Shown here piece by piece: positions 17,371 to 56,925 of a stretch of DNA of 64,000 bases. A model generated the notes under the pieces. It was not told the DNA's origin and made no database searches. It saw nothing but the letters and a program-made list of their open reading frames with translations. The stretch is taken from the NCBI GenBank assembly GCA_021734025.1, contig JAIPJS010000017.1:6165-70164 (forward strand), in the 5' to 3' direction. A program made the translations under genes and the position numbers. The stretch is from Fidelibacterota bacterium (GTDB taxonomy: Bacteria > Fidelibacterota > JAANXI01). The stretch's first letter is position 1. Each line of letters begins with the position of its first letter.

Positions 17371-17428
17371 TGCAGTTGTTGGAGGGGAATGGGGAACACA
17401 AACACTATAACACTGTCGTAATGTGATC

Positions 17429-19543: not shown

Positions 19544-20206
19544 GTGGCAGGATCAAAAAAAATAGGACGACGCAAGCAACCGGACGAACGGAAAAAGGAA
19601 ATTATCGATGCGGCAAGAGATCTGTTCGCATCCCAGGGATACGACAACACTACCATGCAGCAGGTCGTGGAGAAGGCGGGCACGTCCATCGGGAATTGCT
19701 ACTTTTACTTTTCCAATAAAAAGGAATTGTACCAGGGAGTCGTAGAGTCCGTTAACGAAGAGATCTCCGGAGTTGTCGACACTGCAATTCGAGAAATGAA
19801 TTCACCGTATGAGAAACTCGCTGCTGCCGTGTACTACGGGGCGAGGACCGTGCTGGAACTTTCGGAATCGGCCGGTGCCATCCTTACTGGAACGGATCAC
19901 CCGGAGATTCGCCGAAATATTCTGAACCATTACACCCGTCGAATCTATCGGTTCCTCAAACGGAATCCTGTTATCACCGGAGACATAAATCTGGAGTTGG
20001 CCTCAGCCGCATGGCAGGGTGCGATATTCAACTTGATTGAACGACAGACGGCCGGGCAGTTCGACGGCGATGCGCAAACGGTCGCCCGATTCCTGGTGCG
20101 GTGGAACCTCCGCGCCCTCAACGCCCCGGATGCCGAAATCAACAGCGCGCTGGAGACGGTTGAGAGGCATTACCGGGAGGAATACGGGAGCGGGGATGAG
20201 GTATAG
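19544..20206 (+). CDS. TetR/AcrR family transcriptional regulator
   Basis: N-terminal TetR HTH (..KEIIDAARDLFASQGYDNTTMQQVVEKAGTSIGNCYFYFSNKKELY..); GTG start. Confidence 0.9.
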   Translation: MAGSKKIGRRKQPDERKKEIIDAARDLFASQGYDNTTMQQVVEKAGTSIGNCYFYFSNKKELYQGVVESVNEEISGVVDTAIREMNSPYEKLAAAVYYGARTVLELSESAGAILTGTDHPEIRRNILNHYTRRIYRFLKRNPVITGDINLELASAAWQGAIFNLIERQTAGQFDGDAQTVARFLVRWNLRALNAPDAEINSALETVERHYREEYGSGDEV

Positions 20207-20244
20207 GGTATAGGGAAAAAGGGAGAAAGGAAAAAGGAGAAGGG
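20206..20244 (+). repeat. G-tract module (GGGTATAGGGTATAGGG..) immediately after stop codon; four GGG tracts
   Basis: GGG at 20206, 20213, 20221, 20242; begins within the TetR stop codon; start of a purine-rich spacer. Confidence 0.6.
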
Positions 20245-20482
20245 AGAACGAAAAAAGGAAAAAAGCCGCGAAGGGGCGACAGATGAATAGCCCCGGGTTT
20301 TAACCCGGGGATTGTGTGAATCCCAAAATTCAAAACACTGAAGATGTGAAAGAAATACCTTATTGAAGAATGAAGAATGAAAATTAAAGAAGTGGAAAAA
20401 CTAAAGGAAACTGGAATTATGAGACAGGAAACCGAAAACCAGCAATCCAGAACTGGGGACACAGCATGCTTGACCGTTTTAA

Positions 20483-20550
20483 CGATAACACCATAACACA
20501 ATTACACAGTTTTAACTTAAACACTTGAACACCTGAACACACTAACACTG
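20483..20550 (+). repeat. tandem octamer NNRAACAC module upstream of start codon
   Basis: GATAACAC CATAACAC .. TTAAACAC TTGAACAC CTGAACAC ACTAACAC, ending 17 nt before the ATG at 20568. Confidence 0.6.
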
Positions 20551-31229: not shown

Positions 31230-31263
31230 GATAGGGAATGGGGCAATTATGTAGTTCAGCTGA

Positions 31264-31312: not shown

Positions 31313-31342
31313 TCAATTACACTGGGTGGTTTAAATTTCCGG

Positions 31343-31405
31343 CAAAGTAACACTTACCTCAAAGAGATCCCTGTGGGACAGAGGGCAAGACCTGGAAGGG
31401 TCGAT
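31343..31405 (+). repeat. repeat R3 copy 1 (..GTAACACTTACCTCAAAGAGATCCCTGTGGGACAG..)
   Basis: About 60-nt element repeated at 31567-31630 and in reverse orientation around 35128-35190. Confidence 0.6.
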
Positions 31406-31434
31406 AAAATTGGGAGATGAAAAACCAGGTTCAA

Positions 31435-31500
31435 CCTGTCATTTCGACCGAAGTGAACCTTTGGTTTTTAAAAGGTGAACGAAGCGGAAAAATCTCGTGA
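31435..31500 (+). repeat. repeat R2 (66 nt), copy 1
   Basis: CCTGTCATTTCGACCGAAGTGAACCTTTGGTTTTTAAAAGGTGAACGAAGCGGAAAAATCTCGTGA; second copy at 34651-34716 with 3 mismatches. Confidence 0.75.
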
Positions 31501-31566
31501 AAATCCAATAGGAATGGAAAAATAATTCAAATATTCCGGGATGACTTGCACTTTTTTTCTTGAGTG

Positions 31567-31630
31567 CAAAGTAACACTTACCTCAAAGAGACCCCTGTGG
31601 GACAGGGGTTAAGACCCTGGAAGGATCGGT
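31567..31630 (+). repeat. repeat R3 copy 2, ending 20 nt before the 31650 start
   Basis: Contains perfect hairpin ACCCCTGTGGGACAGGGGT. Confidence 0.6.
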
Positions 31631-34334: not shown

Positions 34335-34392
34335 CGTGGAAAAAACGGATGACCACGGATTAATAGATTTGGTTAAACTAGATCAAGATGTA

Positions 34393-34627
34393 ACGACGTA
34401 ACATGCAGGGTGTGTGAAAATACGCAAGGGAACAATTGTGAGTAATCATCACATATTCCTTCTGGTAGAGACGTTTCTTGCCTGTCCCGAGATGTCGGGG
34501 GAAACGTCGCTACATACAATAGTAACAATGGCTTATCGAAGATTTTTATCGAGTGGGATTTCACTACGCTCAGAGGAAAAAATTCCTTGACAATGCATTC
34601 TCACACTGCCTCCATGCTATGTCTCTA
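34393..34627 (+). repeat. MITE-like structured element, copy B
   Basis: Homologous to 22000-22221 with shared terminal blocks and internal hairpins; compensatory changes in one stem (AGAGA/TCTCT versus AGGAA/TTCCT). Confidence 0.55.
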
Positions 34628-34650
34628 CTGCTTCCACTCATCTAATATTA

Positions 34651-34716
34651 CCTGTCATTTCGACCGAAGTGAGCCTTTGGTTTTTAAAAGGTGAACGAAG
34701 CGGAGAAATCTCGTGA
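34651..34716 (+). repeat. repeat R2, copy 2
   Basis: 66-nt near-identical copy of 31435-31500. Confidence 0.75.
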
Positions 34717-34988
34717 GTTAGACCGGAGATTCCGCTTCAACAGAACAACCCTTCATTTCCGGCTACACGATTTGTTGTCCCTTCCACACTCGGGGACTCT
34801 AATGATGGTGAATGGAGTCTCAAGAATGTGAGACGGAAAATAATTCAAATAGCCCGGAGTGCAGTGATATTGGCGGAATCCCTGGCGGTGAAAATGCCGA
34901 TTAAATTACGAGTTTCCTTAATCCTTGGCTTCCTCCGATAAAACGGTTTTCGCCAGAAATTAGAAAATATTAAAAGCAAAAAGTATAA

Positions 34989-35100
34989 GTCATTCCGAGC
35001 GAAACGAAGTGGAGTCGAGGAATCTCGTAAAGCCAACCTCTTGAGAGACAACCACGAGATCCTTCGACTCCCCCGACAAGTCGGGGTCGCTCAGGATGAC
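34989..35100 (+). repeat. 112-bp imperfect palindrome (R1 full element)
   Basis: 5' arm GTCATTCCGAGCGAAACGAAGTGGAGTCGAGGAATCTCG pairs with 3' arm CGAGATCCTTCGACTCC..TCGCTCAGGATGAC; internal hairpin CCCCGACAAGTCGGGG. Confidence 0.65.
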
Positions 35101-35202
35101 TGGTATTGTTTTCGACTGTATTCTTATGATCCTTTCAGGGCCTCGAGCACTGTCCCACAGGGATCTCTTTGAGGAAAGGGTCTGATAATACACGAGGAGA
35201 AT

Positions 35203-35238
35203 AACCGTCGGTGAGCCCTCTCAGGGTCACCGACGGTT
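35203..35238 (-). terminator. rho-independent terminator candidate for the M3 peptidase gene
   Basis: Perfect 11-bp-stem hairpin ACCGTCGGTGA..TCACCGACGGT 12 bp downstream of the minus-strand stop, followed on the minus strand by a short U-rich stretch. Confidence 0.5.
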
Positions 35239-35249
35239 ATCTTCGAAGT

Positions 35250-37343
35250 TTAGTTCAATCCCCGCCGTTTCAGCAATGGTTCGATGCCCGGTTCTCGTCC
35301 CCTGAAACTTTTATACAGATCCATGGGATCATCGGTGCCGCCCTTTGCCAGGATATTATTCCTGAATTTGGTCGCGGTTTCCGTGTCGAAGAGGCCGTTC
35401 TCTTTGAACGCCTGAAACGCATCGGCGTCCAGTACTTCCGCCCAGATGTAGCTGTAATAGCCGGAGGAATAGCCGCCGGAGAAGATGTGCTGGAAATACG
35501 GACTTCGATACCGGACAACTATCTCATCGATGAGTCCTATGTCATCCATGGATTCCTTCTCGAATTCGTTAACGCTCTGCTTCACCGGCTCGGTGAGGGT
35601 GTGCCAGTCCATATCCAGATACGCCGCGGCCAGATACTCTACCGTGGCGAATCCCTGGTTAAAGTGGCGGGCCTTCCGGATTTTTTCGATGAGTGCGTCC
35701 GGTATCGGTTCGCCGGTCTCATAGTGCCTGGCATACTGTTTCATCACTTCAGGCTCGGATGCCCAGTTCTCCATAATCTGGGACGGCATCTCCACGAAAT
35801 CTCTGGGAACATTTGTGCCGGCCAGCATCGGATAGGTAACATCCGAAAGGAGTCCGTGCAGACCGTGGCCAAATTCGTGGAACAGTGTCGAGACTTCATC
35901 GAAGGTCAGAAGCGCCGGTTTGCCGCCGCTCGGCTCGGAGAAGTTGAACACGTTGGTGATGATCGGATCGATGTCGCCGTCCAGCTTCTCCTGGGTGCGG
36001 TATTCGTTCATCCAGGCCCCGCCGCGTTTCGAAGCCCGGGGATGATAATCGGTGAACAGAATTCCCACGTGGGAACCGTCTGCTTCCTTGACCTCGTAAA
36101 CCTTCACATCTTCGTGATAGGTCGGAATATCATTGCGTTCCTCGAAGGTGAGGCCGTACAGTTTTTTGGCCACCATGAAGGCGCCCTCACGGACGTTTTC
36201 CAACTGGAAGTACGGGCGCAGAATCTCGTCGTCCACCGCATATTTCTGCTGCTTCACTTTTTCGGCGTAATACCACCAATCCCACGGCTGGAGTTCGAAG
36301 TCCCCGCCTTCCTCGTCGATGAGCGCCTGGAGGTTTTCGGCTTCCTCTTTGGCGCGCTCCAGCGCAGGTTCCCAAATCTGATCAATCAGCTCGTAGACCT
36401 GCTCCGGCTCCTTGGCCATGTTATCGGCGAGGACATAGTGAGCGTGAGTCGGAAATCCAAGCAACTTTGCCCGCTCGATGCGGAGAGTGGTCATTTCCCT
36501 TACGATTTCCTTGTTATCCAGGTCGTTGCCGTGGTTCCCACGGTTGATATATGCCTTCAGCATTTTTTCCCGGAGATCTCGTCTTTCGGAGTACTGGAGG
36601 AACGGAATCAGGCTCGGCTTGTGCGTGGTAAACACCCACTTATTTGAATTGCCACGCTCCTCGGCGGCCTCGGCTGCAGCGCTGATGACGCCGTCCGGCA
36701 GGCCTGCCAGGTCTTCCCGGTCGTCGATAACGAGTTCGAATTTATTTGTCTCTTTTAAAACGTTATCCCCGAACTGTACCGAAAGCACCGAGAGCCGCTC
36801 GTTGATCTTGCGGAGTTTCTTTTTGTCGGACTCGTTCAGGTTTGCGCCCCCTCGCACGAACATCTTATGGTATTCCTCAAGAAGTTTGTTTTGTTCCGCG
36901 GTGAGTTCCAGGGATTCGCGCTGATCGTAGATCGTTTTAACCCGGTCAAACAGCTGTGCGTTTAGTAAAATATTATCATGATGCGACGAAAGATTGGGAG
37001 CCACTTCTTTGGCGAGATCCTGCATCTCGTCGTTGGTGTGCGCCGAGGTGAGGTTATAGAAGACGTTGCTCACTTTATCCAGCAACTCACCTGAACGCTC
37101 CAGTGCCTCGATAGTATTAGCGAAGGTCGGCGCGTTCTCTGAGGAAGCGATAGCCTCCACCTCTTTGGCCTGCTCCTCGATTCCCGCCTCGAACGCCGGC
37201 ATATAGTGTTCTTCCTCGATTTCACTAAATGGCGGCACGCCGAACGGTGTGTTGTACTCGACAAAGAACGGATTTTGCTGTGGCTGACTACACATAACTA
37301 GTAACACTCCTGCTATTCCTATTATTAGCGTCAATCGTTTCAT
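35250..37343 (-). CDS. M3 family zinc metallopeptidase (peptidyl-dipeptidase Dcp / oligopeptidase-like), secreted or lipoprotein
   Basis: HEFGH zinc motif (..LFHEFGHGLHGLLSD..); N-terminal signal peptide with Cys (..IAGVLLVMCSQP); 697 aa. Confidence 0.85.
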   Translation of the reverse strand: MKRLTLIIGIAGVLLVMCSQPQQNPFFVEYNTPFGVPPFSEIEEEHYMPAFEAGIEEQAKEVEAIASSENAPTFANTIEALERSGELLDKVSNVFYNLTSAHTNDEMQDLAKEVAPNLSSHHDNILLNAQLFDRVKTIYDQRESLELTAEQNKLLEEYHKMFVRGGANLNESDKKKLRKINERLSVLSVQFGDNVLKETNKFELVIDDREDLAGLPDGVISAAAEAAEERGNSNKWVFTTHKPSLIPFLQYSERRDLREKMLKAYINRGNHGNDLDNKEIVREMTTLRIERAKLLGFPTHAHYVLADNMAKEPEQVYELIDQIWEPALERAKEEAENLQALIDEEGGDFELQPWDWWYYAEKVKQQKYAVDDEILRPYFQLENVREGAFMVAKKLYGLTFEERNDIPTYHEDVKVYEVKEADGSHVGILFTDYHPRASKRGGAWMNEYRTQEKLDGDIDPIITNVFNFSEPSGGKPALLTFDEVSTLFHEFGHGLHGLLSDVTYPMLAGTNVPRDFVEMPSQIMENWASEPEVMKQYARHYETGEPIPDALIEKIRKARHFNQGFATVEYLAAAYLDMDWHTLTEPVKQSVNEFEKESMDDIGLIDEIVVRYRSPYFQHIFSGGYSSGYYSYIWAEVLDADAFQAFKENGLFDTETATKFRNNILAKGGTDDPMDLYKSFRGREPGIEPLLKRRGLN

Positions 37344-37499
37344 CGGACTCCTCCTGTAAAGAATACTCTATTTGCATAGATGTTGGGGGAAACTTGGTAC
37401 CGGTGAATGGATGTAATAATAATTCGGGTAATCATAAATGATCTCAAAAAAGAGATATGAAGATAGTGAGGCCGGGGAGAGAAAGCAATTGGTGTATAA

Positions 37500-37526
37500 A
37501 AGCCAGTGTTACGGTGTTATTGTGTT
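37500..37526 (-). repeat. octamer NNRAACAC module, minus-strand orientation (upstream of the M3 peptidase gene)
   Basis: Reverse complement reads CTAAAACAC AATAACAC CGTAACAC. Confidence 0.5.
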
Positions 37527-37684
37527 TTAGTTGGAGAAGTTCTTAATCGTAATCCTACTCTTAATCTTACTCCGTTTGTTTGTAGTTAGTTGTTGGTAAA
37601 ACTCCGCTTGTGTATCTGTTTTCACCTTTCTATGTGGATAAAAACTTTCTCGAGTTGTTTTTGGACGTCACAGAAAATTGATTG

Positions 37685-37758
37685 GGAGTAAGATTAGGAT
37701 TAAGAGTAACCAGCACTGTTGTTAACTTGAACACCCGAACACATTAACACTTGAAAAC
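37685..37758 (+). repeat. hexamer (TAAGAT/TAGGAT) module followed by octamer NNRAACAC module, + orientation
   Basis: GTAAGATTAGGATTAAGAG then TTGAACAC CCGAACAC ATTAACAC, about 80 bp upstream of the 37836 start; mirror-image copy 37545-37575 on the other side of the divergent region. Confidence 0.55.
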
Positions 37759-37835
37759 TTACTATTTCGCTTTCCCCCACACCTTTTTGTATAATACGCA
37801 TTCTGATATTCCGAACAAACACAGGACTAAGACGA

Positions 37836-39233
37836 ATGAAATTATCCCGCTTCAAAGCGCCAAATACGTTCTTTATTATCTTTTCGCTGATTATTGTAAT
37901 GGCTGCACTTACATGGGTGATTCCCGGTGGGGAATACGCCCGGGTCGAGGTGGAAGGCCGCCAGCTGGTTGATCCTAATTCCTTCGAATACGTGAAGAGC
38001 AATCCCCAGGGGATCGGTGCGGTATTAATGGCGCCCATCCGGGGATTTGTGGAGGCGGCGTTGATTATCGGATTCGTGCTGATAGTCGGCGGCGCGTTCG
38101 GAATTTTCCAAAAGACCAAGGCCATCGACGCTGCCATCAAGGGGCTGGCCAAGGCGCAGCAAAGTTCCCGTCTCATAGAGATCCTGACTATCCCACTGTT
38201 CATGCTGCTGTTCTCGCTGGGCGGCGCGGTGTTCGGCATGAGCGAGGAGACTATTCCGTTCGTGCTTATATTTGTACCACTGGCACTCACACTGGGCTAC
38301 GACTCCATCGTCGGTGTAGCCATACCGTTTATCGGCGCCGGCGCCGGATTCGCCGGGGCGTTTCTGAATCCATTCACCATCGGTATTGCCCAGGGAATTG
38401 CGGAGGTGCCGCTGTTTTCAGGACTCCAGTATCGATTTGTCGCCTGGGTTATTATCACGGGAATCGCGATTGCCTTTGTGATGATCTATGCCGCTCGGAT
38501 CAAAAAGGATCCCGAAAAAAGCGTCATGTACGAGAAGGATGAAAAGAAGCGAGCGGATCTGGATACCGATGAAATCGAAAACTTCGGTGGACTGTCCAGG
38601 CGACACAAGGGCGTTCTCTGGACGTTCGCTGCCGGTATGGGTGTGCTGATCTTCGGTGTGCTCACCTATCATTGGTACATCGAGGAGATTGCCGCAGTGT
38701 TTCTTGCCACCGGGATCGCAGTGGGTATTGTGGGGAAACTCGGCATCAACGATGTGGCGGACGCCTTCGAGGACGGCGCCAAGACGCTGGTTGGGACGGC
38801 AATCATCATCGGACTGGCACGGGGTATTTTAGTGGTGGCGCAGGGCGGGCATATCATCGATACCATGCTCCATTCACTCTCAGTAATCGTGAGCGACTTT
38901 CACCCGATTGTCGCCTCCCAGATGATGTTCATCGTCCAGACCTTCCTGAATTTCTTCGTTCCTTCCGGCAGCGGGCAGGCTGCGCTCACTATGCCTATCA
39001 TGGCGCCGCTGGCAGACCTGGTCGGCGTCACCCGGCAGACGGCGGTGCTGGCATTCCAGTTCGGCGACGGATTCAGCAACCTCATTATCCCGACTTCCGC
39101 GGTCACCATGGGCGTGCTTATGCTCGCGGACATTCCCTGGGAAAAATGGGCCAAGTGGATTCTTCCGCTGGAGTTCCTGTTCCTGATTGCGGGCTTGCTC
39201 CTGCTCGTTCCACCGTTTCTGATGGGATGGTGA
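37836..39233 (+). CDS. YfcC-family integral membrane transporter (C4-dicarboxylate anaerobic carrier-like; putative amino-acid/peptide transporter)
   Basis: 465 aa, about 12 TM helices, glycine-rich conserved loops. Confidence 0.7.
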
Positions 39234-39235
39234 TA

Positions 39236-39312
39236 GGGTACAAGGGTATAGAGGTATAGGGGGCAGTTGGGTTTCTTAATCCTAATCTTAATCCTAATCC
39301 TAATCTTACTCA
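39236..39312 (+). repeat. G-tract module (GGGTACAAGGGTATAGAGGTATAGGGGG..GGG) followed by hexamer (AATCCT/AATCTT)n module
   Basis: Starts 3 nt after the YfcC stop; four G tracts at 39236, 39244, 39259, 39269; then CTTAATCCTAATCTTAATCCTAATCCTAATCTTACTC. Confidence 0.6.
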
Positions 39313-39726
39313 TACTCCAAATCAAATTTATCTAATTATGAAATGCAGAAGGGATAAAGCGTTTCGTGGTGCGTTTACTGTTGGATATCCCGGTGCATGG
39401 GAGCGGACGAAAACTCGGATAGCCGGAGAGGAAGCGTCGCGTCCCGACAGAGACTCCTCCCGGAGGCATCCCCGGCGAAGTTTATCACCGCGCAATAAGA
39501 CTATGATGTTAATAATGGTAGCCTTTGAATCTCATTCAATGGCGGAGAACTATCATCAACATCTGCAAAAATTTGCTATTTCAGTTCAATATTCGGCATC
39601 TGTTGTAAGCAATTCACCGGCAACGACGCTTAACGCGATCGTCGCCGGAAGGATCCGTTTCACACTTCGATATTCGAAATTGGGCATTGGATATTCGATA
39701 TTCATTCTTTCCCGTCCAACCACACC

Positions 39727-39756
39727 TTGACTTTGGCCGGGTGAATCCCTTAATTA
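39727..39756 (+). promoter_or_regulatory. sigma70-like promoter candidate TTGACT-N17/18-TAATTA
   Basis: -35 TTGACT 39727-39732 and -10-like TTAATT/TAATTA around 39750-39756, about 25 bp before the 39781 ATG. Confidence 0.35.
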
Positions 39757-39780
39757 AAGGCAATTACAGCCGACGTAGAC

Positions 39781-40752
39781 ATGAAACTCACACGCATAAA
39801 AAATTTCCGTACCGGTGACAGTATCAAAGGGTTTTATCAGCTGACCCAGATGAATCGTCGTACCACGAGAAAGGGCGACGCCTTCCTGGATTGCGTTCTC
39901 AGCGATAAGACCGGATCGGTCTCTGCCAAGTGGTGGAACGTGCCCGAGGCGGCGTTCGACTGGCTGAATCCCGGGATTGTGGTGGCCGTGACCGGCGAAG
40001 TGGAAGAGTATAACGATGCCCGTCAGCTGGTCGTTGAGCAGATTACCCCGGCCAAAGAAGGGCAGGTGGAAAAGTTCGGATGGGCATTTTCTGACATTGT
40101 TCCTTCGACTACGTACGATCCCGATCAAATGTGGGAAAAGGTACAGGAGATCATTGATTCCTTTGAGGAGGAACACCTGCAGAAGCTCGTCCGCCGGATT
40201 TACCACGACTTCGAAGAGGAGATTGCCACGCACCCCGGCTCTGTTTCGCATCACCATCTCTATCGCGGAGGATTCCTGGAACATGTATGGTCATTGACTC
40301 AACTGGGGGAGTTCGTCGCCGATCACTACTTCGAGCTGGATCGGGATCTGTTTCTGGCGGGACTATTCCTGCACGATATAGGGAAGCTGCTTGAAATTAA
40401 GTCGGACTTTGAACGCCAGTATACCGATGAAGGACAATTCATAGGGCACATTGTGCTTGGCAGAGATTTGGTTCGGGAGACGGTGGAGGACTATTTCCCG
40501 GAATTTCCGGATGATTTATTGATTCGCCTGGAGCACGTCATCCTCGCGCACCAGGAGGAGCCGGCCATGGGATCGCCGAAGCGTCCGGCAACGTTAGAAG
40601 CGCTGGCGGTAGCCATGCTCGATCGGTTTGACACCAGAATGGAACAGTTCCTCATGACGCTCCGAAACGATACCAATACCGGCGAATGGACGCTGCCAAC
40701 CAGACTGTTTCCGTATCCACTCCATAAAGGCGTCGGGGACGACGAGGAGTGA
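39781..40752 (+). CDS. HD-domain phosphohydrolase with N-terminal OB-fold (YhaM-like 3'-5' exoribonuclease family)
   Basis: OB-fold-like N-terminus; HD motif region (..HHHLYRGGFLEHVWS.., ..LFLHDIGK..). Confidence 0.7.
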   Translation: MKLTRIKNFRTGDSIKGFYQLTQMNRRTTRKGDAFLDCVLSDKTGSVSAKWWNVPEAAFDWLNPGIVVAVTGEVEEYNDARQLVVEQITPAKEGQVEKFGWAFSDIVPSTTYDPDQMWEKVQEIIDSFEEEHLQKLVRRIYHDFEEEIATHPGSVSHHHLYRGGFLEHVWSLTQLGEFVADHYFELDRDLFLAGLFLHDIGKLLEIKSDFERQYTDEGQFIGHIVLGRDLVRETVEDYFPEFPDDLLIRLEHVILAHQEEPAMGSPKRPATLEALAVAMLDRFDTRMEQFLMTLRNDTNTGEWTLPTRLFPYPLHKGVGDDEE

Positions 40753-41300
40753 GTACCCGCCGCATCGCGTATACCGGACTGTTTATCGCACTTGCCGTGG
40801 CTCTGGGATTTGCCCTGGTTGCCATCCCCAATTTCGAAATGATTTCCGCAACCGTGTTTATTGCCGGCTGGCTGCTCGGGCCCGGAATGGGCGCGTTGGT
40901 CGGATTCATCGCCGAACTCGTCTTCTCCGGAATTAATCCCGCCGGTTCCGGTTTTTTGTTTCCGCCGTTGCTTATAGCCCAAGTCATTTCAGTGAGCCTC
41001 ATAGGGTTCGTTGGCGGTGTTGCCAGACGCGGACAGGTATTTTTTCTGGCCTCTGCCGGCGGAGCGGTATCACTGGGTCTGCTGGGGGGATTACTTACCA
41101 TCATTTTTGATTTCCTGACCACCATCAGTTATCCGCTTGTTGCCGGATTTAACGAAACCCAAATTTGGGCGACGCTCGGCATCGGAGCACTGTTTTATAG
41201 CATGCACGTCATCTCCAACGCCGCAATCTTCGCTGTTATCGTTCCGGCGATTCTCAAAGCCGTCCATTCGCAACTCGGAATAACCGGAGTCATCCGGTGA
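40749..41300 (+). CDS. small polytopic membrane protein (ECF-transporter S-component-like)
   Basis: 183 aa, about 5 TM helices, glycine-rich; overlaps upstream stop; family assignment tentative. Confidence 0.5.
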   Translation: MSTRRIAYTGLFIALAVALGFALVAIPNFEMISATVFIAGWLLGPGMGALVGFIAELVFSGINPAGSGFLFPPLLIAQVISVSLIGFVGGVARRGQVFFLASAGGAVSLGLLGGLLTIIFDFLTTISYPLVAGFNETQIWATLGIGALFYSMHVISNAAIFAVIVPAILKAVHSQLGITGVIR

Positions 41301-43096
41301 AGTATCTGTGCGTCATATTCATCATTGGGATTGCGATTGTGCCTGGAACAGACCTCGCGGGAAAACCGCTGGATTCACTCCATGTTAGGAATCCGGACAG
41401 TACACGAATTATTATGGATTCCGAGACAGTGCCCGGGGCCGTCCGGTCGAGATCTCACCAGATGACGATACTGCGTCCTGTCGGTTTTTTTCCCAGAGAA
41501 GAGTCGGGCGCTTCCGGATACTGGCAGATGGCGCCGGGACCGCAGTATGGCCGCACCATTTTGATCCATGGTCTGGAACTCGACACCCGGCTCCGCCCGG
41601 GCTGGCCGCTCCGGTATTTCCCGCAGCATTCCCTAATTGGTATTGCGCCGGTGAGTACCGATTCCACCGGATATCCCTTGCGTTCACATCTGCTGGAACG
41701 CCGGGAAGAGCCGATGGTCGATCTTGTGTATAAAGAGGGTGACTACGGACTCAGTGCCGTATCTGTAGGGGTAGCCACGGATATCACTGATGATACACAT
41801 CTGCATCTGTCCAGAGAAGGGGAGGGTTTCGTCGGACAATTCGGAATCGACGGTCTTGAAACTGAGCGGTATTATCTCGGAGTGCACCACCGGGTGAGCG
41901 ATTCCACCCGGTTTTTGTACAGTACGTTCTATGCCAGAGATAATAGTACGTGGACGACAGCAACGCCTGCCCCCAACAGTTTCGGGAGTGAATCCTCCAG
42001 CTGGTATCAGCATCTCCTGCGATGGAACTCCCAAACCCGCTTCGGGGAGTGGGATTATGGGTTGCGTCTCGGCTCCCAACGTCTCTGGCTCAACAAAACT
42101 GCTGAAAGAGGACAGATGACCGAACTGCAGCGCGGCGGCTGGCTCGGATATCATTTCCAATTAAATAATGCGATCGGTATTCAATGGCGATATTCCGGAG
42201 TTCAGTATGTGCTGGATGGCAGTAGTTCTAATCTGCAACGTGAACTTTGGCACCGGTTGCAAGGCGGAGCCACCATTCGTTTCGGGGAATTCTCAGTGAA
42301 GGTCCACCCGGAGATTGTAACGGTTTCTACAGGTGACGAAGTATACGTCCTTCCGAACGGCAATGTATCCTATGAGCCTTTTGATTGGATTACAGCCTCG
42401 GTGGAACTGGCAGGTACTGTTACTCCAATACCGTACCAATGGGAGCAGACGTCGGAGAAAATCACCATCCCCACCAGCTCAGTCGAAAAGACAAGCACCC
42501 AAAACATCACAAGCTCGCTGGAGATCACTCCCTTTAATTTCCTTTCGGTAACCGGAGGAGCTGAGTTTACCCAATACTCCAACTGGCACAGTCTGGCGTA
42601 TAACATGCCCGCTGCCCGGACAGATTCCACGTTGACGCTGGAGACAGTAGACGGTAACCACACCGGGCTATTTGCCTCAGCAAAGTTCCAGGTTTTTGAG
42701 GAGTTCGCACTGGGAGGGCGGTATGATGTGTATCCATCAGTGAGCAACATTCTCCCTGAACTCTGGACCCGGCAGACCATCACCGGCTGGATGCAGGCAC
42801 AGCGCTACTTTTTTGATAATAACCTCCTGCTGCACGTGTACCTGGAAGGCGGGACACTGCTATCACGACAGCCGGTCGGCTGGAATCCCCGATTCCAGAG
42901 CCTGACACACTATCCCCTGTTCGGTGATCCGGAATCCTCGGTGTTTATGCATGCAATTATCCAGGGACAAATTGGGGCATTTACCATTTCCACTTCATTT
43001 TATAATGCCGCGGCAAATAATCTTATATATGCATTGGATCAGCGCCCGCCCGCTACAATATTTTATCTTGGTGTGCGCTGGCAGCTCTGGAATTGA
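41297..43096 (+). CDS. hypothetical secreted protein, possible outer-membrane beta-barrel
   Basis: Signal peptide; alternating amphipathic strands; C-terminus ..YLGVRWQLWN rich in aromatics. Confidence 0.55.
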   Translation: MKYLCVIFIIGIAIVPGTDLAGKPLDSLHVRNPDSTRIIMDSETVPGAVRSRSHQMTILRPVGFFPREESGASGYWQMAPGPQYGRTILIHGLELDTRLRPGWPLRYFPQHSLIGIAPVSTDSTGYPLRSHLLERREEPMVDLVYKEGDYGLSAVSVGVATDITDDTHLHLSREGEGFVGQFGIDGLETERYYLGVHHRVSDSTRFLYSTFYARDNSTWTTATPAPNSFGSESSSWYQHLLRWNSQTRFGEWDYGLRLGSQRLWLNKTAERGQMTELQRGGWLGYHFQLNNAIGIQWRYSGVQYVLDGSSSNLQRELWHRLQGGATIRFGEFSVKVHPEIVTVSTGDEVYVLPNGNVSYEPFDWITASVELAGTVTPIPYQWEQTSEKITIPTSSVEKTSTQNITSSLEITPFNFLSVTGGAEFTQYSNWHSLAYNMPAARTDSTLTLETVDGNHTGLFASAKFQVFEEFALGGRYDVYPSVSNILPELWTRQTITGWMQAQRYFFDNNLLLHVYLEGGTLLSRQPVGWNPRFQSLTHYPLFGDPESSVFMHAIIQGQIGAFTISTSFYNAAANNLIYALDQRPPATIFYLGVRWQLWN

Positions 43097-43506
43097 AAAT
43101 TACGGGGAATGTTGAATAGCCGTAGTTTTAAGATATAAGTATAGGCGAAAGACCGTTCGTGGGTAGTGAGCCGAAGTTGGTTGTTTTGCTTCCCCCGAAC
43201 TCTTCACTCTCCGAAGGTTCCATTAACTATATCCTGTTTGAATGACGTGCCCATTAACAATTTAAAAATCTCCCTCTGAAGAGGTGACTGCCTACCAACC
43301 AAATCAGTGCACTTTTTTTCTGCTGAATCTCACGTACCAATCGCCGCTTTGAACCTCCTCACTGGTCATGGCCAATTGGTTACTGTTCGCTGTTTACGTG
43401 CTATTGAATAGAGTATTCAGGGCGGCAGACACATAATATATGACGGTTTTCAACTGTGACTACATGAACGCTCGATATCAGGGGGTTTTGACGGCAACCT
43501 CTGCGC

Positions 43507-43535
43507 TTGACATCTTTAGGCTAATCGTCTAATTT
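43507..43535 (+). promoter_or_regulatory. sigma70-like promoter candidate TTGACA-N17-TAATTT
   Basis: -35 TTGACA 43507-43512, 17-nt spacer, -10-like TAATTT 43530-43535; AAAGGAG about 15 nt further downstream. Confidence 0.35.
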
Positions 43536-43592
43536 CCAAGCAATTAGAAAGGAGATACAGCTTTCAGTACCAATTCGGAAACAGAAAAACTC

Positions 43593-44357
43593 GTGAATGT
43601 CGGTGTGGCGAATGTCTATGCCGAGCCGGCGTTTCATTCTGCCGTTACCACCCAGTGTATTCTCGGTGAAAAAGTCATAATCCAGAACAAAGATGGAGAC
43701 TGGCTCCGCATTACACAGTGGGACGATTACTCCGGTTGGATTCAGGAATTTTATCTGGTAGATTATCCGGAGGATTGGGCACCGGATTACAGTTATCGCG
43801 CTCCGTTGGGATGGATATTTAATGCCACATCCCGGAGTGCAAAGACTTTGCGGCAGATCACTGCCGGTTCCCGATTACCCGGAGTGCCGGAGAATAACGG
43901 TTGGGTGCAAGTATCTCTTCCGGACGGAACCAGGGGCTTCGTTCCTCATACAGACTATAAGTGGCAATCCAATGATATTCGAAGCAAGATCCTGGAAACT
44001 GCAGAGCGCTTTTTCGGCACCTCCTATCTCTGGGGAGGCAAAACGGGGTTTGGGTTCGACTGCTCCGGGTTTGTGCAGACGGTGTTTCGGCTCAATGGAA
44101 TAAATTTACGGCGCGACACCTGGATGCAAATGGAACAGGGAACAGATTTGGACAGCCGGGAAGATCTCCGTCCGGGTGATTTAGTGTTTTTTGCAGAGAA
44201 GGAGAAAGTGAGTCACGTGGGCATCGCCTATAACGAATCGGAATTTATTCATTGTTCAGGTTATGTCCGTCGGAACTCATTTGAAAAAGAGGCATCTGAC
44301 TATAGCGCCCGGCTGGATGCAATGTTTATAGGTGCACAAAGGATAATTCAGGAATAA
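43593..44357 (+). CDS. C40 family (NlpC/P60) peptidoglycan endopeptidase with N-terminal SH3-like domains
   Basis: Catalytic region ..GGKTGFGFDCSGFVQ.. and downstream His (..SHVGIAY..); GTG start; no signal peptide found in this frame. Confidence 0.75.
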   Translation: MNVGVANVYAEPAFHSAVTTQCILGEKVIIQNKDGDWLRITQWDDYSGWIQEFYLVDYPEDWAPDYSYRAPLGWIFNATSRSAKTLRQITAGSRLPGVPENNGWVQVSLPDGTRGFVPHTDYKWQSNDIRSKILETAERFFGTSYLWGGKTGFGFDCSGFVQTVFRLNGINLRRDTWMQMEQGTDLDSREDLRPGDLVFFAEKEKVSHVGIAYNESEFIHCSGYVRRNSFEKEASDYSARLDAMFIGAQRIIQE

Positions 44358-44360
44358 CCG

Positions 44361-44879
44361 ATGTCAGGCAACGGCATACTCAACAGACAGGTACTGGTCT
44401 TAAACCAGAACTACGAGCCGCTCCAGATTTGTAATGCAAAGCACGCCATCGTGATGCTCTACCTGAACCGCGTGGAATTGGTGGAGAGTGATGGGGTAAT
44501 GGTGCATTCCGTCAATGACGAATTCCCGCTGCCGACAGTCGTTCGGGTAAAACGGTACATTAATTACCGTGGATACGAGGTTGTCCTGTCTCGGAAAAAT
44601 ATCATGCGCCGTGACGAATTTAAATGTCAGTATTGCGGGAAACACGACTCGCAACTAACCATTGATCACGTCACACCGAAGCGACACGGCGGAAAGGATA
44701 CCTGGGAGAATCTGGTGACAGCCTGCATCCGGTGCAACAACACCAAAGGGGATAACACCCCGGAACAGGCGAATATGCCGCTCCTGAAGCAGCCGAAAAA
44801 ACCGCACTATATCCAGTTCCTGAAGCAGCATATTGACGAGCCGATACAATCCTGGAAACCATACATTTATTTAGGCTAA
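44361..44879 (+). CDS. HNH endonuclease family protein
   Basis: C-x2-C ... H ... H ... C-x2-C HNH signature (CQYCG.., ..TIDHVTPKRHGGKDTWENLVTACIRCNNTKG). Confidence 0.8.
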   Translation: MSGNGILNRQVLVLNQNYEPLQICNAKHAIVMLYLNRVELVESDGVMVHSVNDEFPLPTVVRVKRYINYRGYEVVLSRKNIMRRDEFKCQYCGKHDSQLTIDHVTPKRHGGKDTWENLVTACIRCNNTKGDNTPEQANMPLLKQPKKPHYIQFLKQHIDEPIQSWKPYIYLG

Positions 44880-45030
44880 CGGCGGGTACAAGGTAATGAA
44901 AACATGTTTTTCAATTAGAAAATGTAAATCACCGAGATTGAAAAACATGATTAAGATTATGAGTAGGATATAGAATAAGAAACGCGAGACATTAATACGA
45001 TAACACATTAACACGAGCGAACTGGTTTTT

Positions 45031-45765
45031 GTGAGCTACGAAGTTAAACTTGACGTCTTTGAAGGTCCACTCGACCTGCTGCTGTTTTTTATCAGCAGGG
45101 ACGAGATCGATATCTATGATATTCCCATTGCGTATATTACTGACTCGTACCTGGAATACCTGGATTTGATGCGGGAATTGAATATTAGCATTGCTGGCGA
45201 ATACATCCGGATGGCGGCGACGCTGATGCGGGTGAAAGCACGTACATTGTTACCCCAACTGGCGGGTGATCCTGATGATGAGGATTATGAGGATCCACGA
45301 TCCGAGTTGGTGGAAATGCTGCTGGAGTATAAGCGGTTCAAGGAACTTGCCGGCACTCTGAAGGTTCGGGAGTCGGATCAGAGGCAACATTTTCAGCGGA
45401 AGCCGGATCTGTCGTACGTGGATACGGATGTCCGGCCTGATGAGGTACTGAATGACGTAACCCTGTACGAATTGATGAAGACTTTTAAGCGGCTTTTGGA
45501 CAATATACCCGAAACGCCGACGCACAATATTGAGCGGGTGCAGACCAACATCCGGAAACAGTCCGAGTATCTGAGAAATCGATTACAGAAAGACGGTAAG
45601 GTGATGTTCTCCGCTATCATGAAAGAACTGGATAATAAAATTACGATCATTGTTACGTTCATTGCACTGCTGGATATGATTAAAAACCAGGAAGTGGCAA
45701 TTTTTCAGGAAACTATCTTCGAGGACTTTCGCATTGAACGCCGGATGGAAACGGCGAAGGCATAG
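45031..45765 (+). CDS. scpA: segregation and condensation protein A
   Basis: Kleisin N-terminal region (..LDVFEGPLDLLLFFISRDEIDIYDIPIA..); followed by scpB; GTG start. Confidence 0.8.
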   Translation: MSYEVKLDVFEGPLDLLLFFISRDEIDIYDIPIAYITDSYLEYLDLMRELNISIAGEYIRMAATLMRVKARTLLPQLAGDPDDEDYEDPRSELVEMLLEYKRFKELAGTLKVRESDQRQHFQRKPDLSYVDTDVRPDEVLNDVTLYELMKTFKRLLDNIPETPTHNIERVQTNIRKQSEYLRNRLQKDGKVMFSAIMKELDNKITIIVTFIALLDMIKNQEVAIFQETIFEDFRIERRMETAKA

Positions 45766-48797: not shown

Positions 48798-48817
48798 GGG
48801 GTATAAGGGTATAAGGG
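48798..48817 (+). repeat. G-tract module GGGGTATAAGGGTATAAGGG after stop codon
   Basis: Starts 4 nt after the stop at 48794. Confidence 0.55.
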
Positions 48818-49060: not shown

Positions 49061-49106
49061 CAATAACACGGGAATACCCGAACACTATAACACTATTTTC
49101 AACACT
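49061..49106 (+). repeat. octamer NNRAACAC module upstream of cmk
   Basis: AATAACAC .. CCGAACAC TATAACAC .. TTCAACAC, about 50 bp upstream of the 49157 start. Confidence 0.5.
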
Positions 49107-49156
49107 TGAAATTCGGTTTGCAATCGCAAGGGGAAACTTCTAAATTCCAAAGCTAA

Positions 49157-49852
49157 ATGAGAACAAAACTAACTATAGCAATTGATGGTCCGTCAGGATC
49201 AGGGAAAAGTACCACTGCCCGGCGCAGTGCCGAACGGCTGGATTATACCTATGTCGACACCGGCGCCATGTACCGGGCCATTACGCTACACATTCTCAAC
49301 AACAACGTCCCGATTAAGGATAAATCGCAGGTAGTGAAAGCGGCGGCTGAGGTGCAGATTCAGTTCACCCGGACCGGTGACCGGCTTGAAGTGTTGCTGG
49401 ACGGGAAGAACGTCACCGATGCTATTCGCGAGCCACGGATTGATAAGTCGGTGGGACTTGTAAGTGAGAACCCCGGGGTGCGTGCCATACTGGTGAATTT
49501 ACAGCGATCGCTCGCAAAGGATGGCGGGGTGGTCATGGAAGGACGTGATATCGGTACCCGGGTACTCCCCGATGCCGATCTCAAGTTTTTCATGGATGCC
49601 GACCTCGACATCAGGGCGGAACGCCGGAAATCTCAGTTGGCCGATCAGGGGGTAGATGTAGACAAAGAAACCGTTAAACAAGAACTGGTCAATCGGGATA
49701 CTCGCGATTCCGAGCGCGATGAATCGCCGCTTCGTGCCGCGGAGCACGCTATTCTGATTGATACAACAAACCTTTCCATTGAAGACCAGGTGGACTTAAT
49801 CGTCCAGCGAGCGAGGGAGAAGGAAGCACAGGAGGTTACTCTTCATGAGTGA
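49157..49852 (+). CDS. cmk: cytidylate kinase
   Basis: P-loop IAIDGPSGSGKST and CMP-kinase specific regions. Confidence 0.9.
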   Translation: MRTKLTIAIDGPSGSGKSTTARRSAERLDYTYVDTGAMYRAITLHILNNNVPIKDKSQVVKAAAEVQIQFTRTGDRLEVLLDGKNVTDAIREPRIDKSVGLVSENPGVRAILVNLQRSLAKDGGVVMEGRDIGTRVLPDADLKFFMDADLDIRAERRKSQLADQGVDVDKETVKQELVNRDTRDSERDESPLRAAEHAILIDTTNLSIEDQVDLIVQRAREKEAQEVTLHE

Positions 49853-52088
49853 AGAAGAAAAACAGCAACAAACCCAAGATGAGGAAACACAAGTCGAAGA
49901 AGTAGAAGAAACACAGGAGAAGGCACCTGAAAGTGATGAACAGACGGAGGCAGCAGAAGAACAGGAAACCGCTGCTCCGGAATCCGATGGCAACGGACAA
50001 ACCACTGACTTTGGCATCCTCGATCTTGACGACATTCAGACCATTCCGAAAGACGAGTTAGTCGAAAAGCGTGAAGAGACCGACGAAGAGGAAGAGCAAC
50101 TTCGCTCGCTGCTGTCAGACACGTTAAAGGATATCGGCGAAAACCAGATCACTGAAGGCCGCGTGCTCTCCATTAATGAGCGCGAAGTCGTGGTGGATAT
50201 CGGGTTTAAGGCAGAAGGGCTGATCCCCATTGAAGAATTTGAAGGTGACGATCTGCCAGAGCCGGGAGAAGAAGTCGACGTCTATATCGATTTTCTGGAA
50301 GACGAAGACGGCCAGCTGATTCTCTCCAAGCGCAAAGCTGACTTTATGAAGCAGTGGGAGAAGGTCGCCAATGCCGAAGCCAACGACGAGGAAGTCGAGG
50401 GAACTATTGTCCGCCGCGTGAAGGGTGGTATGATGGTGGACGTCAGCGGCGTCAACTGCTTCCTGCCGGGGTCACAGATCGATGTCCGGCCGATTCAGGA
50501 TTTCGACGCCTACGTTGGGCAGACCTTCAATTTCAAGATCGTCAAAATCAACGAAATGCGGAAAAACGTGGTGCTCTCCCGGAAGGTCATTCTGGAAGAG
50601 AATCTCAAAGAGCGCCGGAAAGAACTCCTCAAGGATATCGAGGTCGGTCAGGTGCTCCAGGGCCGCGTCAAAAATATCACCGACTTCGGCGTGTTCGTTG
50701 ATCTCGGTGGCATAGACGGCTTGATCCATATTACGGATCTCTCCTGGGGCCGTGTGAATCATCCGTCGGAGGTGGCCAATCTGGAAGAAGTTATCGACGT
50801 GATGGTCATCGATTATGACGAAGAGAAACAGCGTGTTTCTCTCGGACTCAAGCAATTGCAGCCGCATCCCTGGGATAGCGTGGAGGAGAAATACCCCGTG
50901 GGTTCCGTTGTCACCGGCAAGGTGGTCAGCATCACCAATTACGGCGCCTTTGTCGAGCTGGAGAAGGGCATCGAAGGGTTGGTGCACATCTCGGAGATTT
51001 CATGGGTGAAACACATCAAGCATCCTTCGGAAGTCTTTTCACTCGGTGAGGAAATCGATGTAAAAGTGCTGGATATCCAGCCGGAAGAGCAGAAAATTTC
51101 TCTGGGCGTCAAACAGTTGGAACCGGATCCCTGGGAAGAGATCGAAAAGAAATTCGAACCGGGATCCATCGTTACCGGTATCGTCCGGAACCTCACCCAG
51201 TTTGGTGCATTTGTTGAACTGGAAGAGGGTATTGATGGGCTGATTCATGTGTCCGACATGTCCTGGACCCGGAAGATCCGGCATCCCAAGGAAATTCTCT
51301 CCAAGAGTGATGAAGTCCAGGTCAAGGTCCTGGATGTCTCCAAGGACGAGCGGAAAATTTCCCTTGGCCTGAAACAGGTGGAAGAGGATCCGTGGCCCAA
51401 GATCAAGGAGAAGTTCAAGATCGGTACAACAACCCAGGGCAAGGTGGAGCGTATCCTGAACAAGGGGATTATCGTGAATCTGGAACTGGATGTGGAAGGT
51501 ATTGTCCCGTTGTCTCATATTCCGAAAAAGGATCGGAAGCAGATGACGCAGAACATCCAGGTCGGTGACGAAATGGAACTGAAGGTTATCGACATCAATG
51601 AGGATGATAAAAAAATCGTACTCTCCCGGGATGAATTCATCCAGGACAAGGACCAGCACGAGGTCGATATGTTTATGAAGACTCAGGGCGGCCAGGCGGC
51701 TGAAAAGATCGAAATTCCGGAAGAAGTCCGGAAAACGATTGAAGAAGGCGAAAGCCAGGCTGAAGAAGAGCCCGAGAGTACCGAAGCCGAGGAAGAAGTG
51801 ACCGAGAAGGCCACTGCCAACGAAGTCGACGAAGGGACAGACGAAGAGGAGGACGCAGCTCAACCAGAATCTGCAGAGGATGACGAAGAAGCAGTGAAGG
51901 CAGAAGAAGCCGAAGAGGCCGACGAAGAGGAAGCGACAGAGGCAAAATCGGAGGCCGACGAAGCAAACGACAAATCGGAGGAGAAAGAAGAAGACGACGT
52001 GGAGGAGGAACCAGAGGACGACGGGGATGCCGAGGATGACGTTGATGAAGATGAGGATGAAGATGAGGATGAGGAGTCGGAGAAATAA
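49845..52088 (+). CDS. rpsA: 30S ribosomal protein S1 with acidic N- and C-terminal extensions
   Basis: Six S1-type OB-fold repeats; Glu/Asp-rich N-terminal segment (about 60 aa) and C-terminal tail (about 100 aa); start overlaps cmk end. Confidence 0.9.
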   Translation: MSEEEKQQQTQDEETQVEEVEETQEKAPESDEQTEAAEEQETAAPESDGNGQTTDFGILDLDDIQTIPKDELVEKREETDEEEEQLRSLLSDTLKDIGENQITEGRVLSINEREVVVDIGFKAEGLIPIEEFEGDDLPEPGEEVDVYIDFLEDEDGQLILSKRKADFMKQWEKVANAEANDEEVEGTIVRRVKGGMMVDVSGVNCFLPGSQIDVRPIQDFDAYVGQTFNFKIVKINEMRKNVVLSRKVILEENLKERRKELLKDIEVGQVLQGRVKNITDFGVFVDLGGIDGLIHITDLSWGRVNHPSEVANLEEVIDVMVIDYDEEKQRVSLGLKQLQPHPWDSVEEKYPVGSVVTGKVVSITNYGAFVELEKGIEGLVHISEISWVKHIKHPSEVFSLGEEIDVKVLDIQPEEQKISLGVKQLEPDPWEEIEKKFEPGSIVTGIVRNLTQFGAFVELEEGIDGLIHVSDMSWTRKIRHPKEILSKSDEVQVKVLDVSKDERKISLGLKQVEEDPWPKIKEKFKIGTTTQGKVERILNKGIIVNLELDVEGIVPLSHIPKKDRKQMTQNIQVGDEMELKVIDINEDDKKIVLSRDEFIQDKDQHEVDMFMKTQGGQAAEKIEIPEEVRKTIEEGESQAEEEPESTEAEEEVTEKATANEVDEGTDEEEDAAQPESAEDDEEAVKAEEAEEADEEEATEAKSEADEANDKSEEKEEDDVEEEPEDDGDAEDDVDEDEDEDEDEESEK

Positions 52089-56612: not shown

Positions 56613-56617
56613 AAAAA

Positions 56618-56657
56618 GGGTATAAAGGTATACGGGTATAGGGTATAAGTAATAGGG
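56618..56657 (+). repeat. G-tract module (GGGTATAAAGGTATACGGGTATAGGGTATAAGTAATAGGG) after stop codon
   Basis: Four GGG tracts at 56618, 56634, 56641, 56655, starting 6 nt after the stop. Confidence 0.6.
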
Positions 56658-56817
56658 AATAAGGTAGTCGCCCGCTTCAAGTCCGCGAGGCGGATTTAAT
56701 CAGGGGAGACGCCGGAGAAAAGCAGAAAGGAACAGATTGAATATCCATTTCGCCGCGGTAGAGAAAAAGTGAAAAAACCAAACGAGAAACGGAAGGCACT
56801 CGATTCATGACGTTTTT

Positions 56818-56925
56818 AACTATAACACCACAAAAAGGAAACACTATAACGCCCTCATCCGCCAGGGCTTCGGAGAGATGGTGTTGTTACTCGAACACTG
56901 GAACACCTGAACACTATACCACTTG
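56818..56925 (+). repeat. octamer NNRAACAC module upstream of the UDP-glucose dehydrogenase gene
   Basis: CTATAACAC .. GAAACAC TATAAC .. TCGAACAC TGGAACAC CTGAACAC TATACCAC. Confidence 0.5.

Follow-up and report, generated by a model that had tools for sequence, protein, structure and literature searches.

Four runs of a hexamer repeat occur in a 64,000-nucleotide stretch of DNA from a Fidelibacterota bacterium (GenBank assembly GCA_021734025.1, contig JAIPJS010000017.1, positions 6,165 to 70,164 of the forward strand), which is referred to here as the window. The consensus of the repeated unit is TARGAK (TAAGAT/TAGGAT/TAAGAG), and the array can also be written as (TAAGATTAGGAT)n. The reading that we tentatively favour, although it falls short of being probable, is that the runs are TARGAK arrays which form one slippage-prone module of a dispersed, fast-turnover intergenic mosaic, similar to the bacterial interspersed mosaic elements (BIMEs) and situated in the promoter-distal part of the spacer. 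The defined ends of the arrays, their polarity, the fixed order of their neighbours, their dispersal, their variable unit number and their turnover are together consistent with such a dispersed mosaic of slippage-prone arrays.

The initial annotation of the window had listed four hexamer runs, and all of these exist to within a few bases, including the degenerate array c4 (Table 1). Tandem Repeats Finder (TRF) called arrays of period 6/12/18 at 37541, 37680 and 39274-39323, which correspond to c1-c3, and reported no tandem repeat at c4. Matches to TARGATTARGAT with at most one mismatch in the window all fall inside c1-c3, and each of the four sites has 3-7 in-phase TA.GA. units, as is expected of a tandem, simple-sequence repeat. 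Runs of at least three consecutive TA.GA. units were seen four times, compared to an estimated ~0.01 expected per 64 kb. All four arrays are intergenic, with intergenic DNA making up 12.8% of the window, and c1, c2 and c4 are each followed, 9-24 nt to the 3' side on the same strand, by an array of a second, octamer unit, (AACACNNN)n (the AACAC array). For at least three of four hexamer arrays to adjoin AACAC arrays, p is ~1e-5 under random placement within intergenic DNA. Two such cases had been counted originally; the shared orientation holds, but the number was an undercount as it is three of the four.

The hexamer array is polar: read in the sense direction of the gene that it precedes, it is purine-rich. 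Its ends are also defined: c1 and c2 begin GGAG-TAAG, c3 begins GGAG-TATGAG and c4 begins ..GAT-TAAG, and the arrays in the window end in TAAGAA or TAAGAG. On inspection, the canonical TAAGAT/TAGGAT/TAAGAG units contain no ATG/GTG/TTG start on either strand and have recurrent TAA/TAG stops in one frame. A coding repeat was rejected as all four arrays are outside called genes, and an open reading frame (ORF) at 39338-39730, beside c3, has no Pfam match and was left uncalled by both gene-calling pipelines. The arrays were identical in an NCBI metagenome-assembled genome (MAG; GCA_021734225.1, contig JAIPJI010000005.1, Candidatus Marinimicrobia bacterium) and in a Logan assembly made independently for this population, and they are therefore not an assembly artefact. 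Among the sequences compared, L002 is identical to the window and thus gave no added information. The hexamer is a rare module in this genome, with four arrays in three neighbouring spacers, and another 19.5 kb of the contig to which the window belongs contained no more of them.

The octamer of the AACAC array has 23 matches in the window, compared to 2.4 expected, and all of the AACAC arrays that were mapped lie 5' of genes and on the strand of the gene. At its 5' boundary the octamer array often has the partial palindrome (GTGTT..AACAC) of TGTTGTTA(A)CTYGAACAC. A third module, the G-tract, starts at or overlaps the stop codons of plus-strand genes; several of its arrays have at least four GGG runs, from which G-quadruplexes could form. 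It had been proposed that the spacers are assembled from a small vocabulary of tandem modules in the order G-tract, hexamer, octamer, gene. This is partly supported: strand-specific modules in a consistent order were indeed found, and in the co-directional window spacers that carry modules this order is the G-tract at the upstream stop codon, the hexamers if present, the AACAC array, the promoter and the gene. The hexamer-octamer part of the order recurs at 21 independent metagenome loci, but c3 is oppositely oriented beside its G-tract and departs from the order, and the hexamer is a rare and unstable module in this genome. Related genomes carry (CCCTTATAC)n, the C-rich complement of the G-tract, immediately 5' of their hexamers in place of the G-rich form. 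Downstream of the AACAC array of the transporter gene, the extended -10-like TGTATAAT is probably the DcuC promoter, and both the hexamer and octamer arrays would then lie upstream of it. As good promoter matches, where there are any, are downstream of the arrays, a role as an upstream spacer or insulator is favoured, and the arrays may function in this way.

Table 1. Positions of the hexamer arrays and of the neighbouring modules and motifs in the window.
Feature	Position	Strand	Sequence or unit	Placing
Hexamer array c1	37540-37573	-	GGAG TAAGAT TAAGAG TAGGAT TACGAT TAAGAA (read on minus strand)	Purine strand toward minus-strand peptidase M3 gene (35250-37343)
Hexamer array c2	37685-37711	+	GGAG TAAGAT TAGGAT TAAGAG TAACC	Purine strand toward plus-strand DcuC/YfcC-type transporter gene (37836-39233); inverted partner of c1
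Hexamer array c3	39273-39318	-	GGAG TATGAG TAAGAT TAGGAT TAGGAT TAAGAT TAGGAT TAAGAA	Longest array, 7 units; plus (sense) strand past DcuC stop is the pyrimidine form (AATCYT)n; atypical copy, with G-tract immediately before, no AACAC array and no inverted partner
Hexamer array c4 (degenerate)	44946-44981	+	CATGAT TAAGAT TATGAG TAGGAT ATAGAA TAAGAA	Between HNH gene and scpA (start 45031), 5' of AACAC array
AACAC array	17394-17413		(AACACNNN)n	
AACAC array	20487-20548		(AACACNNN)n	
AACAC array	37505-37532	-	(AACACNNN)n; GTGTT on plus strand	Between c1 and peptidase M3 gene; inverted partner of 37724-37751
AACAC array	37724-37758	+	(AACACNNN)n	Between c2 and putative DcuC promoter
AACAC array	44994-45014	+	(AACACNNN)n	Between c4 and scpA start; kept in L123
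AACAC array	49065-49109		(AACACNNN)n	
AACAC array	56840-56922		(AACACNNN)n	
G-tract array, C-free	20200-20265		(GGGTATAG)n type	At or overlapping plus-strand stop codon
G-tract array, C-free	39234-39264	+	(GGGTATAG)n type; TAGGGTACAAGGGTATAGAGGTATAGGGGG	From DcuC stop codon; immediately 5' of c3
G-tract array, C-free	48798-48817		(GGGTATAG)n type	At or overlapping plus-strand stop codon
G-tract array, C-free	56616-56666		(GGGTATAG)n type	At or overlapping plus-strand stop codon
G-tract array, weaker	17381-17395			
G-tract array, weaker	31230-31245			
G-tract array, weaker	44883-44897			
Extended -10-like motif	37788-37795	+	TGTATAAT	Downstream of AACAC array; TGTATACT in L123 and L129-L134
Centre of inverted repeat	37574-37684		G/T-rich module GTTTGTTTGTAGTTAGTTGTTGG (also in L146/L147 mosaics) and DnaA box	~110 nt, between c1 and c2
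DnaA box, perfect	37633-37641	-	TTATCCACA	Single, between c1 and c2

Arrays c1 and c2 share the 492-nt spacer of the divergent peptidase M3 and DcuC/YfcC-type genes. As the order hexamer, octamer, gene is present on both strands of this spacer, the two mirror each other, each facing its own gene, and constitute a ~250-bp inverted repeat (37505-37758), a relation that goes beyond the initial annotation, as does the wide occurrence of the TARGAK unit outside this lineage described below. The hexamer arms (37550-37573 / 37685-37708) are 83% complementary and the octamer arms (37505-37532 / 37724-37751) are 75% complementary. This is the only complementary hexamer pair in the window, with its arms 97-119 nt apart, and c3 and c4 are without partners. 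The isolated DnaA box at its centre may be the site of a DnaA-regulated promoter or may be due to chance. As in a DnaA-trio/oriC, each third base of the arrays is an adenine (TAA GAT TAG GAT) and a perfect DnaA box is nearby, between c1 and c2, but the box is single, there is no skew reversal and a genome has such arrays at many loci. An origin was rejected since the one box is isolated and without a cluster, and cumulative GC skew rises near-steadily over the window with no reversal.

Metagenomes were scanned for the composite of hexamers followed by AACACNNNAACAC 4-34 nt on, and 21 loci were detected compared to an estimate of less than one expected (numbers prefixed with L are labels for the sequences compared). 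These were Marinimicrobia-like or Armatimonadota-like, and L156 was confirmed as Marinimicrobia; the composite pattern was found in none of the viral contigs. The same motif order is thus present at many intergenic loci, three sites in the window and these 21, as in a BIME-like mosaic. Nearly all of the 18 arrays listed for the Marinimicrobia-like loci start after ..GAG, end in TAAGAA and are then followed by AACAC-type arrays, the exceptions on inspection being window c3 and L155 at 12077. In the Marinimicrobia-like genomes the (AACACNNN)n array is almost always within ~5-25 nt after the hexamers, and is then often followed by a sigma70-like promoter and a gene. A longer order was observed in L146, L147, L150, L154 and L155, consisting of a G/T-rich module, a TTCAC hairpin, (CCCTTATAC)n, (TARGAK)n, (AACACNNN)n, a sigma70-like promoter and the gene; these mosaics end in TTGACA-17-TATATA (L146) and TTGCTA-N17-TAAGAT (L150), both being consensus matches. 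The G/T-rich module and the 'ATTGAAAAA' flank are also present in the window copies, which suggests homology of the L146-type mosaics with the window elements. Genes neighbouring the composite include the housekeeping genes scpA, lysC and hemN.

The Armatimonadota-like genome (Ga0255338) has 63-70% GC, and the closest named homologues of its aspartate kinase are mostly from Armatimonadota. Six copies of the composite (L141, L142, L145, L153, L158 and L159) share ~100 nt that includes non-repeat parts, and they are therefore a dispersed repeat family. The order of the element in this genome is GCCTGAATGCC, hexamers, a GC-rich 15-mer and CAACACCTGAACACC. In L158 an inverted GTTCAGGTGTT array is located ~150 nt upstream, mirroring the divergent spacer of the window.

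Turnover of the module can be seen by comparison with relatives. The locus L123 is syntenic with the window, its transporter having 86% amino-acid identity. It has retained AACAC arrays in front of both the transporter gene and scpA, as well as the -10-like TGTATA(A/C)T upstream of the former, but no hexamers were present anywhere in the 21 kb examined. The AACAC array of 37724-37758 is kept at the orthologous place in L123 and in a second lineage (L129-L134, 86% identity) with differing copy number, and in the latter it has 4-6 copies between samples and contigs break inside it, at their 5' ends. In L123 an octamer array is present at 9883-9911. The orthologous spacers of L129-L134 also lack hexamers, and their post-transporter spacer is 71 nt as opposed to 547 nt in the window (39234-39780). 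None of the modules were found in L126, an 80% relative. The hemE-hemN spacer has the full mosaic in L156 and none of it in L160/L161, with the HemN proteins in one cluster at at least 90% identity. As relatives sharing 80-90% amino-acid identity have no hexamers in the orthologous spacers, the hexamer is not a stable building block; the module is quickly gained and lost, and the AACAC array is steadier than the hexamers, though not invariably. A clean insertion in the divergent spacer relative to L123 was looked for and was not found, as rearrangement extends over all of the distal part and leaves no clear-cut boundaries.

Outside of this lineage, a scan using one genome per species and at least three TARGAK units returned at least 120 stretches. 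Of 120 matches listed, 71 (59%) belong to the Planctomycetota-Verrucomicrobiota-Chlamydiota (PVC) group, namely Verrucomicrobiota, Planctomycetota, Lentisphaerae and Kiritimatiellia, as counted from record titles. The counts that follow are for the matches listed. Many of the arrays are accompanied by an inverted partner at a distance of 15-60 nt, and 25-35 bp hairpins are usual in PVC genomes; for the loci of PVC and of the Fibrobacterota-Chlorobiota-Bacteroidota (FCB) group the predicted hairpins have energies of -27 to -53 kcal/mol and z-scores of -3.5 to -10. In 27 cases the order is 5'-pyrimidine arm, loop, purine arm-3', compared to 4 with the reverse. Among unpaired arrays at most 80 nt upstream of a gene start, 19 have the purine strand as the sense strand and 5 have the pyrimidine strand, and arrays after stop codons had no orientation bias (16 against 12). 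With flanking genes validated by Pfam, the hairpins are 3-50 nt from gene boundaries and are present in co-directional (atpD-atpC), convergent and divergent spacers. No AACAC array was beside the hexamers in any of 177 runs. In viral contigs the hexamer pattern is common, mostly as TAGGAG in what look like coding repeats, and none of 126 runs were paired, so pairing is no automatic consequence of the pattern.

Some of these hairpins belong to families. One from Akkermansia/Kiritimatiellia (L022:4544-4808, L086:2795-2947 and L102:904-984) has a shared loop, CC(A/G)TTCTCCACCAG(T/G)AGAT, and outer arms AAGTTAAGC...CCCCTTAACTT; its members have 3 to 14 hexamer units per arm, and they thus show directly that arrays have expanded inside a single family. 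The reverse arrangement was observed in Phycisphaerae (L003:3483-3568, L013:3734-3826 and L029:2996-3060), where a purine arm, a GC-rich inner stem-loop (GGATCGCGC..GCGCGATCC) and a pyrimidine arm follow each other. These copies resemble a bidirectional terminator with hexamer arrays in place of the A- and U-tracts.

If the arrays are part of such a mosaic, they would originate and change in length through replication slippage, to which arm-to-arm template switching may add where two arms pair. They would spread as part of the mosaic element and persist as a length-tunable, non-coding spacer or insulator upstream of the promoter, and would not be gene-specific regulatory sites. In PVC genomes, head-to-head pairing of the hexamer unit would produce the long stem-loops beside gene boundaries. 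Several observations weigh against this reading. The promoter positions in the window are consensus matches only, and in about five composites the AACAC array ends at most 25 nt from the start codon, so that the arrays there are in or at the promoter or 5' untranslated region and not upstream of it. Array c3 breaks the polarity rule, and no hexamer copy-number polymorphism was seen between the two assemblies of this population. The same unit and order are also present in genomes of 36-70% GC from different phyla; pure slippage is insufficient to explain this recurrence, which suggests that a sequence-specific partner or horizontal spread is involved, although neither was identified. It is conceivable, if rather doubtful, that the TARGAK array with (CCCTTATAC)n upstream and (AACACNNN)n downstream is an undescribed, polar cis-element found across phyla (Marinimicrobia and Armatimonadota-like, with hexamer hairpins alone in Verrucomicrobiota and Planctomycetota), which has a defined molecular partner or activity and spreads between spacers. 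The activity would be, for example, that of a portable promoter/leader or insulator cassette, or of a recognition array for a conserved protein.

The main rival explanation, which we consider unlikely, is that the composite is a promoter and leader cassette in which the last TARGAT is -10-like (T-A-n-n-n-T) and transcription starts at the boundary of TAAGAA with A-rich sequence. It accounts for the fixed order and polarity of hexamer, AACAC and gene, and for the conservation of the terminal TAAGAA unit followed by A-rich sequence. Only 12-25 nt separate the AACAC array from the start codon in L148, L152, L156, L143 and window c4, leaving no room for another promoter; in addition TAAGAT is the -10 of the L150 promoter match, and the purine arm adjoins gene starts in the PVC hairpins. 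The G-free AACAC array would then be an unstructured, CA-rich 5' leader favouring Shine-Dalgarno-independent initiation. However, on inspection neither a -35 nor a TG extension was consistently present at the required distance, and a hexamer array acting as a sigma70 promoter with its own -35 was rejected for want of consistent spacing. A better sigma70-like promoter is located downstream of AACAC in L146 and in the DcuC, cmk and ugd spacers of the window, the DcuC match being kept in relatives without hexamers, and the TAAGAG and TAGGAG units do not have the -7 T. Less likely again is a protein-binding array, where a nucleoid-associated protein or global regulator would polymerise on the 6-bp (GATTA) repeats and DNA would loop across the divergent spacer. 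The occurrence of one unit across phyla and GC contents, the defined boundaries and polarity, and the two inverted arrays ~115 bp apart in the divergent spacer would fit with this, but the arrays are not kept at the orthologous promoters of close relatives, unit number is unconstrained (3 to >14), a 6-bp period does not align sites on one helix face, and no candidate protein was identified.

An element acting at the RNA level is about as improbable as a protein-binding array. Paired arrays would be the stem-loops of terminators, RNase III sites or mRNA end protectors, and the unpaired c3 would be a Rho loading site after DcuC. The stability of the predicted PVC/FCB hairpins and their closeness to validated gene ends and starts, including those of atpD-atpC and of a convergent pair, are in its favour, as are the lack of any canonical terminator after DcuC and the pyrimidine-sense composition of the c3 region (C16/G5 at 39266-39340). 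However, the hairpins are without U-tracts and are present in every gene arrangement, including divergent, and the window arms are ~110 nt apart and upstream of both putative promoters, so they are probably not transcribed together. When fold energies of the two strands were compared as a test of G-U against C-A asymmetry, crude gene calls made the sense strand the stabler in 11 of 14 cases, and after Pfam validation the count was 4 against 3. Intrinsic terminators were rejected, as nothing resembling one was detected in 37300-39850 or, within 44700-45200, at the arrays. The least credible alternative is that the runs are neutral, microsatellite-like expansions which are functionless and mutually unrelated; their fast gain and loss between relatives, their degenerate units and the many other 6-8-nt arrays in the same spacers are what this would predict, but it does not explain the identical unit, boundaries and neighbour order at dozens of loci in different phyla, the 19:5 and 27:4 orientation biases, or the adjacency to AACAC arrays.

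Other repeats were observed in the window. A heptamer array (TTCGATA x ~5, 39666-39703) immediately precedes a conserved promoter-like site, TTGACT, that belongs to the HD/OB-fold gene. A second dispersed repeat family is represented by a 67-nt copy pair (31434-31500 / 34650-34716, 97% identity), and a third, of 51-58 nt, by direct copies at 31342-31392 and 31566-31616 and an inverted copy at 35124-35181; these two families flank the caroten_synth-photolyase block, and the spacer at 34335-35249 is 915 nt. Overlapping 6-27-nt purine-rich tandem repeats (GAAGAAG, GATGAG) were found at 51884-52075, inside the 3' end of ORF 49845-52088. This ORF probably encodes an S1-domain protein, based on synteny with L123, and the repeats would give it an acidic C-terminal tail of low complexity.

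Regarding known elements, Rfam had no matches in the window at the gathering threshold, and for eight hairpin-bearing loci it gave just sub-threshold, spurious microRNA-like matches on the hairpins. Exact-string searches of the literature for the hexamer, octamer and G-tract arrays, together with topical searches, found no description of them, and no paper was found under the accessions of the MAG and its runs. Promoter-proximal simple-sequence repeats include those of the contingency type, for example the TAAA tract upstream of Neisseria nadA, and the tandem repeats of yeast promoters. The arrays here are similar in having short tandem units of variable copy number upstream of a promoter (the AACAC array, with its 4-6 copies), but differ as their units are imperfect and several arrays are chained in a fixed order before housekeeping genes. 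Paired arrays of PVC and Ignavibacteria resemble intrinsic terminators or intercistronic stabilisers, being stable predicted hairpins a few nt from stops and sometimes between convergent genes; unlike terminators, however, their stems are AT-rich with no U-tract and they are also located between divergent genes, and in the window a copy either has no partner or has one ~110 nt away.

The mosaic is closest to BIMEs and repetitive extragenic palindromes (REPs), being intergenic, dispersed, present in many copies and built of ordered short motifs (PMC3733652), with frequent inverted pairs or stem-loops at gene ends and with variation between related genomes. It differs in that the modules are tandem arrays of 6-8-nt units and not a fixed 20-40-bp palindrome, the PVC stems being 25-35 bp of hexamer repeats, and in that the hexamer unit is common to several phyla, most REP families being confined to a species or genus. 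No RAYT (Y1 transposase) gene was identified in the ~84 kb of this MAG that was read, although no scan aimed at it was made. A survey of REPs describes GTAG-/CGTC-tagged repetitive extragenic palindromes, which are a different kind of element (PMC3733652). GTAG is found in the arrays just inside some units, with no unpaired GTAG/CGTC terminal tag, and a REP of this type was rejected as there is no compact 20-40 bp palindrome in the window.

Even without a function, these arrays break metagenome assemblies, with contigs ending inside them, and yield spurious ORFs; they also make the intergenic regions of close relatives unalignable, which affects the prediction of promoters and small RNAs in MAGs. 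Should the mosaic have a function, several mostly uncultured phyla would have in common a portable upstream element of tunable length, and the hexamer hairpins would be a REP-like class abundant in Verrucomicrobiota, including the culturable and therefore testable Akkermansia.

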